Assembly: GCF_016903815.1 (NCBI RefSeq)
Contig: NZ_CP069973.1
Reading direction: 5' to 3' (one strand)
Source: Escherichia coli
Lineage (GTDB): Bacteria > Pseudomonadota > Gammaproteobacteria > Enterobacterales > Enterobacteriaceae
DNA length: 64,000 bases
This document shows, in pieces, positions 30,896 through 51,366 of the stretch. The number at the start of each line of letters is the position of its first letter. The stretch's first letter is position 1. The notes beneath the pieces are model-generated. The model was not told where the DNA came from and searched no databases. It saw only the letters and a list, made by a program, of their open reading frames with translations. The translations under genes and the position numbers were made by a program.

Positions 30896-30977
30896 TTAGA
30901 TGATGGCATTCTCACTCCAACCAGAGCCACCAACTCAGGGCTGGAAAGTAAAAAACCGACGCGAAGTCGGTTTTTTT
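30896..30977 (+). ncRNA. agrA: AgrA small RNA (dinQ-related repeat), approximate ends
   Basis: Promoter-like TTGCAA-17-TAGCAT upstream; body ends in terminator aaaaaaccgacg-cgaa-gtcggttttttt. Near-duplicate of the agrB unit. Confidence 0.6.
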
Positions 30978-31129
30978 ACGTCCGGATTCGGACAAGGCTT
31001 GGTACGGCAGCGACCCGATGAAAGTATATAAATCCTCTTTCACCAACATGTATAGCAAACTGTCCCTTCTCCAGCTGAAGAAATCGCTAATTCTTGCAAT
31101 GTTAGCCACTGGCTAATAGTATTGAACTG

Positions 31130-31211
31130 TTAGATAAGAGCTCTCTCACTCCAGCCAGAGCCACCAACTCAGGGCTGGAAAGTAAAAAACCGACGCAAAG
31201 TCGGTTTTTTT
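31130..31211 (+). ncRNA. agrB: AgrB antisense small RNA (repressor of dinQ), approximate ends
   Basis: TTGCAA-17-TAGTAT promoter at 31094..31122. Body is near-identical to the 30694..30727 segment lying antisense within the dinQ transcript region. Terminator at 31185..31211. Confidence 0.65.
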
Positions 31212-31363
31212 ACGTCCTGATTCAGACCTCCTTTCAAATGAATAGCCAACTCAAAATTCACACCTATTACCTTCCTCTGCACATACACATTCGTTAAACC
31301 ATATATGTTTTTGACTTATCCGCTTCGAAGAGAGACACTACCTGCAACAATCAGGAGCGCAAT

Positions 31364-33499: not shown

Positions 33500-33529
33500 A
33501 GCGGCGATATCCACTGCCCATAGTTGGTA

Positions 33530-33640
33530 AAGTGCGCTTTGTTTATGTCGGATGCGACGCTAACGCGTCTTATCCGACCTACAAAACCGTGCATGGCATG
33601 AAATCTGTAGCGCGTAGCGCATCAGGCAATTTTGCTATTT
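33530..33640. repeat. REP (repetitive extragenic palindromic) elements
   Basis: gtcggatgcgacgctaacgcgtcttatccgacctaca and gcgtagcgcatcaggca resemble enterobacterial REP units. Confidence 0.55.
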
Positions 33641-33918
33641 ACGCAGCACTCCTCGCGTAAGAATTCAATTATCGCTTCCAGCATTGCGTATTGCGAAACA
33701 CACATCAGCGTTCGACTCTCACGGTTTTGTTTGACCAGCCCTACCGATACCAGTGCTGAAATATGGTGACTGAGTGTAGAGCCGGGTATCCCAAGCTGCT
33801 TTTGCAACTCACCGACCGGCAAACCTTGTTCCCCCGCTTTGACCAGGTGTTTGAATATGAACAAACGGGTCGGGTGACCTAGCTCTTTCAGCGCTTTAGC
33901 AACTTCTTCCAACTGCAT
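33622..33918 (-). CDS. Second ArsR/SmtB-family metalloregulator with C-terminal Cys cluster
   Basis: 98 aa; winged-HTH segment GELQKQLGIPGSTLSHHISALVSVGLV; cysteines at ...LMCVSQ... and ...REECC near the C-terminus. Confidence 0.8.
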   Translation of the reverse strand: MQLEEVAKALKELGHPTRLFIFKHLVKAGEQGLPVGELQKQLGIPGSTLSHHISALVSVGLVKQNRESRTLMCVSQYAMLEAIIEFLREECCVNSKIA

Positions 33919-34025
33919 ATGACACCCCCTTTGTCTGGTTGATATTTCGATAATACCAGAAATATCTTGATCTGAATTTCATTTCGATTATTCTGGAAAT
34001 ATAGATTTATTCAATGAGGTTACGT

Positions 34026-35027
34026 ATGAGTAGTTGGCTTGCGATGCTGCAAGATGCCGCAGAGATGTTTGTGTTTCTCGCCGTTGAGCTTTCTTTGCTG
34101 TTTATAGTGATTAGTGCCGGTGTGAGCCTGATAAGACAAAAGGTGCCAGACCATAAAATCCAGCAGATGATGGGGGCCAGAAAAGGGAGAGGTTATCTCC
34201 TGGCTGCTCTGTTGGGAGCCGTTACCCCGTTCTGTAGTTGCTCGACAATACCCATGTTACGTGGATTGTTGTCAGCGAAAGCCGGGTTTGGTCCAACCCT
34301 TACTTTTTTATTTGTTTCACCGCTACTTAATCCCATTATCGTCGGACTAATGTGGGTGACCTTTGGCTGGAAAGTGACCTTGTTGTACGCGATTATCGCC
34401 GCCGGCGTCTCCGTACTTGCCAGTATTATCCTGGATTCTCTGGGATTTGAACGTCATATTATTGCCAGTAAAAGCTCATCAGCAAATTGTTGTGCTCCAG
34501 CCAAAACTTCGCCGGGGACGACATATACGCCAATAAAAGTGAGTTGCTGTAGTCCAGCGGCTAAAGCCATTGAGAAACCTGTAGTAAACTGTTGCAGTAC
34601 CAAAGCTGTGGTAAGTATTAATCCCATAAAACTAGCCACCAAAGATGCGTTGCAACAGTTTAAAGATGTACTGCCATATCTTTTGTTAGGGGTATTAATA
34701 GGCTCTTTTATTTATGGCTTTATTCCCTCAGAGTGGATTGCCGCTCATGCAGGGGCAGATAATCCCTTCGCCATCCCATTGAGCGCCGTTGTCGGTATTC
34801 CGCTATATATCCGGGCAGAGGCGGTTATCCCTCTGGCATCTGTTCTGATGACAAAAGGAATGGCTCTGGGAGCATTAATGGCATTAATCATCGGCAGTGC
34901 CGGCGCAAGCCTGACGGAAGTGATATTACTTAAATCAATGTTCAGAATACCGATGATAGTTGCATTCCTGACGGTTATATTAGGTATGGCTATCTTGATG
35001 GGCTATTTGACTCAAATGCTATTTTAA
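34026..35027 (+). CDS. arsP: ArsP-like (DUF318-type) permease, candidate organoarsenical efflux permease
   Basis: GAGG RBS 6 nt before ATG 34026. Contains the TPFCSCS motif (AVTPFCSCSTIPM) and a Cys-rich central loop; divergent from the ArsR-family gene. Confidence 0.65.
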   Translation: MSSWLAMLQDAAEMFVFLAVELSLLFIVISAGVSLIRQKVPDHKIQQMMGARKGRGYLLAALLGAVTPFCSCSTIPMLRGLLSAKAGFGPTLTFLFVSPLLNPIIVGLMWVTFGWKVTLLYAIIAAGVSVLASIILDSLGFERHIIASKSSSANCCAPAKTSPGTTYTPIKVSCCSPAAKAIEKPVVNCCSTKAVVSINPIKLATKDALQQFKDVLPYLLLGVLIGSFIYGFIPSEWIAAHAGADNPFAIPLSAVVGIPLYIRAEAVIPLASVLMTKGMALGALMALIIGSAGASLTEVILLKSMFRIPMIVAFLTVILGMAILMGYLTQMLF

Positions 35028-35607
35028 ATAGATGCCAGCAGTAAACTATAAGGAGCATTGTGAGTGCCTTATCCTTCTGAGTAGAAAATCATAGATAGGA
35101 TAATCTTTAAAAATCACAAATAACTTAACTAATGCTTTGAGAATGATGACGGATCCGTCAGTAAGTCATCAATCGACAATCACCACGCAATCATGCTTCT
35201 CTGACATTTTATCGGAGAAGCAATGTCTCTTTGTTTCAGTGCTATCCCCCCTTTTAAAGGGCAGATTTCAGTCGCCAATACAACACATTTTTAAATACAC
35301 TTTAACCTGGTTCATTATTACACATCTAAAACATCACAAAAATATCACTTCACACACTATCGGTGAACATCATAACTTTTTAAAATGAGCGCTTTTTGAT
35401 AGTTGTTAACGTTTTCCTTTACGATACTATCACTGCCCTTTTTTTATACACAAATATTACCGGGTGGAGATAAAAGGGAAATCAAAGGTAATTATATCAG
35501 GAAGAGATAACGCATTACATTTATTGTGTGTAGAAGAAAATCCATTCCTGTTCTAATTATCCAATTTAAACATCTTAGCATAAAACAAATGATGAATAAG
35601 GAATTTT

Positions 35608-36831
35608 ATGTCAATTGACTTTACCCCAGGTATAATAAATACATATCACGGCGATATTTATAACTGCACAACAAATACCGATAATGCTAAAACGCCAGAC
35701 ACACCGAAGTGGCCTTGCGATAATTTGGAAGAACAACAACCCATTAATTCCACATTCTCTGGAGAAGGATATACCTCTGATCAATATGATTTAGCGCAAC
35801 ACCAACTTCAACAAATTAATGCGTGCCACACGAACACTACATATACAAATGCAGAATACTCAAAAGTTGTGACTCAACTTGTAAGTCTTATTACTAACAT
35901 TGAAACGATAAGTTCGACACCACTTACGCAACAGACACAATCAATACTTAATCAGATTAATAACATTAGATACGAAAAAAACAAAAGTGCTGAATGTCGA
36001 ATCATTGTTGTCGCTAATCCTAAACCCGACAAGGCAATCATAACTAAAATTAGCGTAGAAGAGGGAATACCAGTAAGATTCAGTGTCCAAACCATGTTTT
36101 CAGATACTAATTTTATTGCTGAACAACGAGCTGACTTACCGACTAATATAAAAGATATTCAAAACCTGTATCAAAAAATGACGAAGTTATATATTGAGCA
36201 CAGTGAAAATAAAAACAGGATGAAAGTCTTTGCCGGAACCAACTTTATTGATTTCAATATGACAGGACAGAACCTGTCCGGGTTCGTTCTAACCTTGTCA
36301 AGGTTTTATTTCGAAGATCTACTTAATATAAATTTCACTGACGCAAATTTAGGTGACACTATTTTTTCACATAAAGAACACCCTGCCCCAAAATTATATA
36401 AAGACGAACAATATCTTGACAAACAAATCGAAGGTTTATTTTCAACATTATTAACCATTAATGACAACTTTTTACGAGCAAAAGCGGAAATTGCTTCGAC
36501 AATAATTAAATTCTTAGAGGCCAGGATAACCAATATTTCATACAATGACATATTAAAATATCAGCAAGAATTCAAAAAACAATGTTATAAGCAAGTTAAA
36601 GCCTTTACGACACTCTCCCGATACAATAAAATTCAAACATGGGCAGAAATGTCTGAATATCAATTCGAAGTATTTCAACGCGAGACGCTTAACCCAAAAA
36701 AAATGTCATGCGCACCTTATTTAAAGAGATCGCTACCTGATGAAAAAACTATAAATTATGGGGTGGAAATAGAAACACCAACTGGCAAAAGAATTCGCTT
36801 ATCAAATCATTACCAGAATATAATCCCATAA
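35608..36831 (+). CDS. yhiS: YhiS, uncharacterised protein (intact 407-aa form)
   Basis: AT-rich ORF in the arsC-to-slp position. Confidence 0.7.
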
Positions 36832-37075
36832 TATGAACATTAGCACTTTATAATCATTGAATAAAAATAGATTTTATGTACCTTTAAAAAAAGGCTATTT
36901 TATGGGGCGATGGATACTCATGTCACGCCCCAAAATTAACAGAATTAAACTAAACAGAAGGGATATAAACATCAGACAGGTTTACGTTACTATCAGGCAT
37001 ATCGCCTCAGAATCAGATGAAAACTATAAAGAAATATCTATTATGGTTTTAATATTTGTTGATAAGGATAGTAAC

Positions 37076-39462: not shown

Positions 39463-41445
39463 TTACCATTGATAACTCACGAAAATTTTTCCATTACGAC
39501 CATCCTGTGGGATGCCTTGTGGCGACCAGTACTCTTTGTCGAAAGCGTTACCCAACACCAAAGTAGTGGTCATACCTTTGAGCGCCTGTTGTCCTTGATA
39601 ACTGACGTAGAAATCATTCACGCCATAGCCTGGTTGTTTGCTGTAACTGCTGCTGATATGTGTTGAGCGATCGGCAAACGTACCAACCCACCCAACAGAG
39701 AAGCCACTGTGAGCGATCGGAATATTCAGGGTACTGGTAACGGTATCCGGGTTAATGCTGGAGATATATTCCCCAGTATCGGTGTCTTTGCCGCGGGTAC
39801 GGTTATAGGCCACATCAAGGCTAAACAGATCAGTGGTATATTTCGTCATTACATCCCAGCCCCAGATTTTGGCGTTCGGGACGTTATACGACATAGTTGT
39901 CGCCGCCGCGAAATCGACGGTCGTGGAGATGTAATCCTTCGCTTTGGTATCAAAGTAGCTGGCTTTAAATTCCAGGGTATCATTGGACAACATCAGGTCA
40001 TCAAAACGCAGCCCAAAACCGTACTCCTGAGTTTCGTTAGTTTCCGGACGTAAGTTCGGGTTTGGCACCCAATAGTTGGTATAGAAGCGACCAATCGAGA
40101 AGTGCTTAGAATCGTTATACATTTCGCCCATCGTCGGGGCGCGGAATGCCTGGGCATATGAGCCAAATAACATCAGCCAGTTAGTCGGATTGATAGTCAT
40201 CCCCGCACGAGATGACCATTTGTCGGCATCAACATCTTTGTAACCGTCACTGCTACCGCGATAACTGTCATAGCGGGTTCCGCCAAGCAGGGTAATCGGC
40301 AGATCGCGTAAGGTGATCTCATCCTGTAGCCAGCCGGAGCTAAAATCGATTTTTGCTTGCGGGAAGCCCGTCGTCGCGCCGCCCGGATGTTGTTCCTGAC
40401 GATAATACTCACCGCCATATGTCAGTAAGTGAGAAGCGAAACTGTCGGCAAAGAGAGTGGAACGGTTCTCCAGCCTGGCTCCTTTTGTTATCTGTTCACG
40501 ATACTCGCCGGAACTCCCCGTGTTTTGCGCATTAATACGGACTTCCGACCAGTAAATTTTTGCATCTGCATTTAACCAGTCGTTGCCCTGCGGGGCGAGT
40601 TTATAAGAAAGCTGCGCATCGCGTTGAATTGTTGAACGATCAACCATCGGGTTGCTGCTATCAGAAGCCTCAACAGTCTGCGGATTTTTTGGTTCACGCG
40701 CGTCGTTGTTGTAGTAACGCACTAAACCGCTCAGAGACTGGGCTGAATCAATTTGCCAGGTCCCTTTCGCCAGCATGTTATTAATGGACTCGTCATTCGG
40801 CGCGGTTTCACCATTGCTCTGGCGTAAATCACCCCGACCGCGACTGGACCAGGCCACAATACCATCCAGATTTTCAGTTCGCCCAAACGCGCTCGCGCCT
40901 AATCCCAGGCTATGGTCCCCCGTGCCGCCAGTACCAAAGACACGAAAACCACTGCTTTGTCCTTCCTGCAATAAATCTTTTGCATCGACCGTATCGTAGG
41001 AGATCACTCCACCCAGCGCACCACTGCCATACAGTAATGCTGAAGGTCCGCGAACAATCTCAACACGCTTGATCAGCGCCGGATCGAGAAAAGTGCCATT
41101 CAGGTGTCCGGTATCCGTTCCCTGGCGAACACCATCGACAAGAACCAGCACGCCGCGATGATCATAGCCACGCATATTTACATCCTGACCGTTGGTTCGT
41201 CCGGTACCATCAAGAGTAATTCCAGGAACATGACGCAGCAAATCAGTGGCTGAAGTAGCCGTTTGATTTTCAGGAGCGGAAGTGTCGATGACGCTGACCA
41301 TCATAGGCGCTTCGAAGGAACTACGGGCATTCCCCGTTGCCGTAACGGTCATGGTTTCAGTAGCAAAAGCAAACGTTGGCAAGGTGGCAGAAACAGCCAA
41401 AGCCAACAAACTCAAACGCAACGAGGTAAATTGCGGACGTGACAT
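39463..41445 (-). CDS. chuA: TonB-dependent outer membrane haem/haemoglobin receptor ChuA
   Basis: 660 aa; signal peptide, TonB-box-like ETMTVTA, plug and beta-barrel, C-terminal ...VSYQW. Confidence 0.95.
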   Translation of the reverse strand: MSRPQFTSLRLSLLALAVSATLPTFAFATETMTVTATGNARSSFEAPMMVSVIDTSAPENQTATSATDLLRHVPGITLDGTGRTNGQDVNMRGYDHRGVLVLVDGVRQGTDTGHLNGTFLDPALIKRVEIVRGPSALLYGSGALGGVISYDTVDAKDLLQEGQSSGFRVFGTGGTGDHSLGLGASAFGRTENLDGIVAWSSRGRGDLRQSNGETAPNDESINNMLAKGTWQIDSAQSLSGLVRYYNNDAREPKNPQTVEASDSSNPMVDRSTIQRDAQLSYKLAPQGNDWLNADAKIYWSEVRINAQNTGSSGEYREQITKGARLENRSTLFADSFASHLLTYGGEYYRQEQHPGGATTGFPQAKIDFSSGWLQDEITLRDLPITLLGGTRYDSYRGSSDGYKDVDADKWSSRAGMTINPTNWLMLFGSYAQAFRAPTMGEMYNDSKHFSIGRFYTNYWVPNPNLRPETNETQEYGFGLRFDDLMLSNDTLEFKASYFDTKAKDYISTTVDFAAATTMSYNVPNAKIWGWDVMTKYTTDLFSLDVAYNRTRGKDTDTGEYISSINPDTVTSTLNIPIAHSGFSVGWVGTFADRSTHISSSYSKQPGYGVNDFYVSYQGQQALKGMTTTLVLGNAFDKEYWSPQGIPQDGRNGKIFVSYQW

Positions 41446-41450
41446 AGCGA

Positions 41451-41466
41451 TTCTCCATGAGGAAAA
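41451..41466 (-). promoter_or_regulatory. Candidate FourU-type RNA thermometer hairpin masking the chuA Shine-Dalgarno
   Basis: Minus-strand RNA reads UUUUCC-UCAU-GGAGAA immediately 5' of the chuA AUG; UUUUCC can pair with GGAGAA. Confidence 0.4.
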
Positions 41467-41734
41467 TAAAAAATGCTGGCTGCCTGGGTTAATACCGGGG
41501 TGGCTGGCGAAAAATAAATTTATTTAAAATTCAGAGCGATAATATTCGCCGGGTGAGTTTACAGGCGTTTATATCCCATGAAATTGCCTGGTATCTCGGC
41601 AAATACGCAAAAGCACGCCCTCTTTGTCAGGCAAAACGATATGCCCCATCAGGAGTGAAGAGCGCTGTGCGTTATCCCTTGCAAATGCTATGGTTTTGTT
41701 ATCCATATGGTCGTGTTTTGTTAAGCGCGAACGT

Positions 41735-51028: not shown

Positions 51029-51366
51029 TCAGGACATAAGCAACTGAAATTGATGGCTGGCATGACGAGGGATGCAGATGCTGATTTCATTACCCCCGGT
51101 GATTACTAAAGGAGAGGCGAAAACGACTTTATTCCCCTGGTATATGTATCCACCAGTAGAACCCTTCGTTGCCCGAATGCTGGCAGGAACTGTTGGCAGA
51201 ACGGCAACATTTTTTTTGTCGTTGACCTCACCATGTCGATCACTATGCCTGTATCCCACCTTACTGGCTGACAACCCCACTATGCCGCTGGTCTGTAAAT
51301 CCCTCATATCTCTCCTCGCGCGCAATTTAAAGAACCGTTATTTCTCAAGAATTTTCAGGGACTAAA

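Follow-up and report, generated by a model that had tools for sequence, protein, structure and literature searches.

An uninterrupted allele of yhiS upstream of slp in Escherichia coli, with the K-12 IS5 target site unoccupied

The open reading frame at positions 35608–36831 (+ strand) of the window, i.e. of the whole 64,000-nt stretch of E. coli contig NZ_CP069973.1 analyzed here, is almost certainly an uninterrupted allele of yhiS (K-12 b3504, UniProt P37635), as regards both its identity and its state, and the overall explanation of the locus developed below is one that we hold with high confidence. The gene, its disruption by IS5 in K-12 and its uncharacterized status are already present in the standard annotation and in published papers; what is added here is a census of inactivating lesions, evidence that this orphan gene is real, though under weak constraint, hypervariable and subject to recombination, and the description of a sub-threshold pentapeptide module. 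The significance of an intact yhiS is modest. Annotation copied from K-12 would mislabel the complete 407-aa gene as a pseudogene, and intact alleles such as that of the window are the right material for studying the function of YhiS.

The reading frame and its gene model

In the list of open reading frames the coding sequence extends over 407 codons from an ATG to a TAA stop (36829–36831), and the gapless alignment to K-12 described below supports the same limits; the statement of the preliminary description that yhiS is intact at 407 aa is thus exact, as is the position between the ars cluster and slp that it gave for the gene. The same reading frame is annotated as a hypothetical protein (WP_001521529.1) in E. 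coli strain 7/2 (NZ_CP023820.1; human faeces, Sweden), whose copy is 100% identical and which differs from the window by 1 base over three stretches covering ~62.7 kb of the 64 kb. A putative Shine-Dalgarno sequence, AAGGA, can be read at 35598–35602 (+ strand), 5 nt 5' of the ATG. The reading frame is AT-rich (34% GC), and when it was shuffled 2000 times, the longest run without a stop codon across all six frames was 77 codons on average and 166 at most, which argues that a frame of 407 codons is not due to chance; stop-free runs on the reverse strand of the real sequence do not exceed 84 codons. A scan of the whole window with Rfam found no RNA family within or adjoining yhiS, and promoter-like sites were not enriched relative to shuffled sequences (13 found, 11.8 ± 3.5 expected).

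Identity with K-12 yhiS and the empty IS5 site

In the RefSeq annotation of MG1655, yhiS (b3504) appears as a pseudogene in two fragments (3651291–3652036, 746 nt, and 3653236–3653713, 478 nt), with IS5T (insH11) between them. When joined, the fragments amount to 1224 nt, which is exactly the length of the reading frame in the window, and the alignment to them that had been proposed beforehand as a check is gapless, with 39 nucleotide differences (96.8% identity) and 24 amino acid differences (383 of 407 residues identical). Both copies occupy the same position upstream of slp, and the order arsC...yhiS-slp-dctR is conserved across the loci examined, the window having two extra genes between arsC and yhiS. 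The assignment of the frame to yhiS is therefore borne out by the alignment over both K-12 fragments and by the shared arsC...slp position.

The K-12 junction reads ...AAATTTAG, IS5, TTAGGTGACAC, while the window reads ...AAATTTAGGTGACAC. The K-12 element has the ends GGAAGGTGCG...CGCACCTTCC and carries TTAG on either side, whereas in the window one TTAG (36349–36352, + strand) is followed directly by GTGACAC. A duplicated TTAG, which would be the scar of an IS5 insertion, was looked for at 36349–36352 and none was seen. The single TTAG therefore represents an unoccupied IS5 target site; IS5T (insH11) inserted in K-12 at this tetranucleotide, after nt 745 of the reading frame, duplicating the target, while in the window the site is empty. 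That K-12 yhiS is split by IS5, as the preliminary description states, is documented by the MG1655 annotation, by the TTAG duplication and by the literature, where yhiS::IS5 figures among the catalogued IS5 insertions of K-12 (PMC11677980, PMC1174868). As one of the IS5 sites used as markers of K-12 (11 copies in MG1655/BW25113), it is unoccupied in the window, which makes the marker negative, i.e. the strain is not K-12, and not positive.

Two other readings of the locus were considered, namely that the frame is not an orthologue of K-12 yhiS, or that IS5 was once present and its precise excision restored a K-12-like allele. Taken together, they have a negligible probability. The former is ruled out by the gapless alignment over both fragments at 96.8% identity and by the same position. 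The latter is ruled out by the 39 substitutions and by two larger differences, a 1.5-kb segment upstream (with an ArsR/SmtB regulator and a permease) and a chu cluster downstream, both of which are present in the window and absent from K-12; these differences also imply that the window is not derived from K-12. Moreover, an empty site is what E. coli commonly has, and a divergent Escherichia lineage has it as well. The route by which IS5 in yhiS mediated a deletion of the acid fitness island of K-12 in laboratory evolution (bioRxiv 10.1101/063271) is not available to strains whose site is empty.

Inactivating lesions of yhiS among E. coli genomes

The distribution of the gene was analyzed in 5426 complete E. 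coli genomes. Some match to the yhiS reading frame was found in 5414 of them, and a match over at least 80% of its length in 3993. The K-12 IS5 junction (a 120-nt query composed of 60 nt of yhiS and 60 nt of IS5, with at least 80% coverage) is present in 354 of the 5426 genomes; the four full-length matches listed comprise three laboratory or collection strains and one strain recorded as coming from a pig.

Two frameshifts in homopolymeric runs are frequent. The window carries a run of six T followed by C at 36362–36367 (+ strand) where K-12-type alleles have seven T, as seen in the allele alignments, and loss of one T from the T7 run (nt 761 of the reading frame) shifts the frame to a stop at codon 282. 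This variant was read in O111:H11 and in strains 165 and PK-F-10132, and an exact 62-mer finds it in at least 1114 of the 5426 genomes. The second run, of eight A, lies at 36696–36703 (+ strand), and in O157:H7 one A has been lost from the corresponding run near nt 1090, which leads to the 371-aa product of the annotated CDS; an exact 60-mer detects this deletion in at least 295 genomes. The O157:H7 EDL933 gene Z4907 (read here from strain BB24-1) is the orthologue at the same position, with about 94.7% nucleotide identity, but its 371 aa end in an altered C-terminus, whereas the window allele encodes the full 407 aa. Z4907 has been cited as an ‘unknown gene’ at the border of the acid fitness island (PMC9729726), and a literature search by the O157 locus tag returned nothing beyond this mention.

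Larger lesions occur as well. In Nissle 1917 (B2 type) a deletion of 913 bp has removed the interval that corresponds to 35987–36899 of the window: homology ends at 35986 and resumes at 36900 according to blastn, from which the boundaries were taken, global MAFFT alignment of the remnant having given misleading ones. The remnant in Nissle is annotated as a pseudogene, and a similar pattern, with 30% coverage, was seen in 7 of 40 systematically sampled genomes. One sampled genome has a disruption associated with IS1. The gene has thus been broken in at least five different ways, independently, across E. coli. The window allele has neither IS5 nor the loss of T at nt 761, the loss of A near nt 1090 or the 913-bp deletion, and none of the features by which a pseudogene is recognized (frameshift, premature stop, insertion sequence, truncation) was found in it.

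Subtraction of both frameshift classes from the 3993 full-length matches leaves 2584 genomes (47.6%) as an upper bound, so that the frame is open in at most about 48% of the 5426 genomes. Eight of nine translated 1224-nt alleles without a length change are open, and the true share of open frames is probably 40–47%. Neither length nor automatic annotation is a safe guide to the state of the gene. In FXCREC004 (NZ_CP196743.1; positions 301–1524 of locus L015) the loss of one T at nt 761 is accompanied by an extra T at nt 898, giving a total of 1224 nt, yet the stop at codon 282 lies between both changes and the second does not rescue the frame; equal length is therefore no guarantee of an intact yhiS. 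Conversely, isolate NRZ14408 (NZ_LT599825.1; positions 301–1524 of locus L014) is labelled ‘frameshifted’ by PGAP and given a shortened CDS, but its sequence translates as 407 open codons; the label looks like an annotation artefact, possibly arising from comparison with the 371-aa form, and shows that the PGAP flag for yhiS is not always reliable.

The most divergent allele found, with 63% amino acid identity, is an open reading frame at the same site; the lineage that carries it has an arsC with only 92.6% identity to that of the window. The open state of this allele and the restriction of the IS5 junction to 354 of the 5426 genomes indicate that the open frame is ancestral and the K-12 state derived.

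It follows from the census that the intact gene, which had been proposed as a useful strain marker, serves this purpose only moderately well. By its state, yhiS sets K-12 derivatives, O157:H7, Nissle-type B2 strains and the one-T-deletion group apart from other E. coli, and an open frame rules out all four, including the large one-T-deletion group. On the other hand, an open frame is specific to no strain, being ancestral and present in up to about 48% of genomes. It is the K-12 insertion that is derived and informative, and the sequence of the window allele, found at ≥99% identity in 101 of the 5426 genomes, is more discriminating than the openness of its frame.

Selection, variability and recombination

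Divergence of yhiS between E. coli strains reaches 21% per 200 nt, against 0–5% over most of the flanks, where local peaks of ~10% or more occur directly downstream of the permease and, in a single strain, in the vicinity of arsC. The former peak corresponds to the non-coding positions 35005–35304 of the window, which differ by about 10% from several strains and may mark another recombination boundary; a terminator-like hairpin (35194–35222) lies in the same region. Within yhiS, 14 E. coli alleles contain 274 polymorphic sites, for which the four-gamete test of Hudson and Kaplan gives Rm = 21, a minimum of 21 recombination events, and a PHI-like permutation test gives p < 0.001. These results indicate that the alleles are mosaics produced by intragenic recombination.

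The ratio dN/dS (Nei-Gojobori) among E. coli alleles of yhiS is 0.42–0.57, compared with 0.02–0.08 for arsC and the permease, and decreases to 0.25–0.36 in comparison with the divergent lineage. Synonymous divergence is also high, with dS of 0.17–0.29 in yhiS, 0.09–0.15 in arsC and the permease, and 0–0.025 in slp. The excess of synonymous changes is significant (Fisher p = 1e-6 for the window against SX23), and when the 121 or 172 observed substitutions were placed at random, the frame stayed open in 1e-3 and 5e-5 of the simulations, respectively. The lowest dN/dS within the protein, 0.14–0.39, belongs to the pentapeptide segment described below. Such a pattern argues that yhiS is a genuine protein-coding gene under weak but real purifying selection.

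Could the frame be open and the gene nevertheless functionally dead, its selective value lost and no disabling mutation having struck yet? A dN/dS of 0.42–0.57 is high for E. coli, at least five independent lesions are known and at most about 48% of frames are open, all of which would fit this possibility. So would the data on regulation in K-12, where the regions arsC/yhiS and insH11/slp are among the H-NS-bound ‘promoter islands’ (PMC3661553), yhiS is named among the loci bound by StpA/H-NS (bioRxiv 10.64898/2026.02.10.705075), and overexpression of YdeO induces slp-dctR, not yhiS (PMC4222967). Likewise, a study that calls yhiS an uncharacterized pseudogene reported that neither the Keio deletion, which removes an already IS5-disrupted gene, nor a plasmid-borne copy changed the MIC of chlorhexidine (PMC8170033). 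However, dN/dS is significantly below 1 and is lower still at the deeper comparison, the frame has been kept across 121–172 substitutions against the simulated odds, the pentapeptide segment is selectively conserved and a properly spaced putative Shine-Dalgarno sequence is present. We therefore consider a dead gene with an open frame unlikely, and prefer the interpretation of yhiS as a coding gene under weak constraint.

Protein features, taxonomic range and possible function

YhiS is a protein of 47 kDa with a pI of 6.2. No signal peptide and no membrane segment were predicted, the highest 19-residue Kyte-Doolittle average being 0.9. The scans against Pfam and NCBIfam identified no significant family, PADLOC gave no match and the best PHROGs hit had an E-value of 0.3, so that no relationship to anti-phage or phage proteins was indicated. 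In a word-indexed search of a collection of 5.8 billion proteins the named homologs were only ‘hypothetical proteins’ of E. coli and Shigella (63–94% identity), and an exhaustive HMMER search of 1.84 billion cluster representatives returned one full-length cluster along with fragments from E. coli. The gene is thus confined, in database searches of this breadth, to Escherichia/Shigella. The exhaustive search (phmmer) reported in addition four weak matches (E-values from 1e-6 to 5e-4) of query residues ~204–285 to large proteins, which Pfam confirmed to be pentapeptide-repeat proteins.

Analysis of the register revealed a pentapeptide-repeat-like stretch of about 10 pentads in codons 204–258 (36217–36381, + strand). 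Ten consecutive pentads (aa 207–256) have F, F, M, L, L, F, L, F, L and F in register, and Asp or Asn precedes the pentad centre in 6 of 9 cases, i.e. YhiS exhibits the tandem A(D/N)LXX pattern with a hydrophobic centre every 5 residues. In this respect, aa 204–258 resemble the pentapeptide-repeat proteins (PF00805, Rfr32), with Phe, Leu or Met occupying every fifth position, but the similarity covers about 55 of the 407 residues, with the remainder resembling nothing known, and the match of YhiS to PF00805 is below the threshold (score: 11.8 bits, gathering cutoff: 20.2, E-value: 0.18). A sub-threshold match to this family was obtained for 17 of 18 alleles (best E-value 0.037). The PDB, searched by sequence and by profile, yielded weak pentapeptide hits and no others. 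A profile search identified Rfr32 (2f3l) on aa 202–257 with an E-value of 0.006, and the matches of the same residues to TL15 (3n90) and QnrB1 (2xty) had non-significant E-values. This short putative repeat stretch is the sole recognizable feature of YhiS. AlphaFold2 was run twice, with alignments of 18 and 92 sequences, and gave models with mean pLDDT of 36.5 and 34.6, in both of which the pentapeptide segment is below 50. The first ~55 residues are polar and rich in Thr, Asn and Pro, and were modelled without secondary structure at very low confidence.

From these features a functional sketch can be drawn, which we offer tentatively. YhiS would be a soluble ~47 kDa protein lacking a signal peptide or membrane segment, in which aa 204–258 are predicted from sequence to form a pentapeptide-repeat β-helix of roughly 2.5 turns with helical flanks, and it would most likely be a binding or scaffold protein and not an enzyme. 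Located directly upstream of slp-dctR, where the acid fitness island has its left edge, the gene would be silenced as xenogeneic DNA by H-NS/StpA (the binding being known from K-12 and not from this strain) and would be conditionally useful, its soluble product acting via the short β-helical surface. Poor expression combined with conditional dispensability would probably account for the repeated loss of yhiS. Against this sketch, the PF00805 match of 11.8 bits remains below the threshold of 20.2, the AlphaFold2 models are unusable at such low pLDDT and lend no support to the β-helix or to its helical flanks, and a dN/dS near 0.5 together with the loss of the gene in at least half of the genomes also fits decay.

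Or could an exported, effector-like or surface-interacting role have placed YhiS under diversifying or balancing selection, its mosaicism and loss resulting from antagonism with a host, phages or competitors? In favor of this, yhiS shows extreme divergence and recombination for a chromosomal gene of E. coli, and its dS, roughly double the values for arsC and the permease and no less than tenfold the value for slp, points to old allele classes. Furthermore, the N-terminal ~55 residues are polar and modelled (at very low confidence) without secondary structure, and some of the distant pentapeptide matches are to proteins that contain autotransporter-passenger or dockerin modules. However, when dN/dS was calculated by region, no segment of yhiS was consistently above 1, the protein has no signal peptide or hydrophobic segment, and sequence searches of Pfam, NCBIfam and the PDB revealed no similarity to known effectors, which makes this scenario highly improbable. 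A related and likewise improbable, if slightly less remote, idea is that YhiS could be a pentapeptide-repeat protein specific to Escherichia, with balancing or antagonistic selection maintaining its old, recombining allele classes and with knock-outs being adaptive in some niches; if this were true, the acid fitness island would have at its left border a small arena of conflict and not a decaying orphan gene. The soluble, silenced and conditionally useful binding protein sketched above is the version that we retain, tentatively, for the locus.

Neighborhood of yhiS in the window

The two genes situated between arsC and yhiS (33622–35027), which were overlooked in the preliminary description and which K-12 lacks, belong to a 1.5-kb segment (33508–35003) and are divergently oriented: one encodes a regulator of the ArsR/SmtB family (33622–33918, - strand) and the other a Cys-rich ‘permease’ (34014–35027, + strand). 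The segment is absent from K-12, O157:H7, Nissle and the divergent lineage (L011), and is present in many other E. coli, including SX23, 500111, O111:H11, 165 and PK-F-10132.

On the other side of yhiS, inside the acid fitness island, a chu/shu haem-uptake cluster extends from 38386 to about 47340 between dctR and yhiD, a position at which K-12 has nothing. It comprises chuS, chuA, shuT, hutW, hutX, chuY, shuU and an ATPase gene, and Rfam identified a member of the shuA thermoregulator family in the 5' UTR of chuA (41443–41474, - strand; 60.1 bits, gathering score 58). The other RNAs identified by Rfam, all on the + strand, are two AgrB-family antisense RNAs beside dinQ (30896–30979 and 31130–31213; agrA and agrB in K-12), the sRNA ES205 (51146–51217) and GadY (56997–57110).

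At the beginning of the window (1–6000) there is an Rhs element with NTF2-fold immunity genes, in which two pseudogene fragments (3849–4088 and 4128–4214) are annotated as ‘pentapeptide repeat-containing protein’; they are positionally unrelated to yhiS. Downstream of the Rhs region the window contains a copy of IS1 (7236–7933) and a truncated ISAs1 transposase gene (8115–8513).
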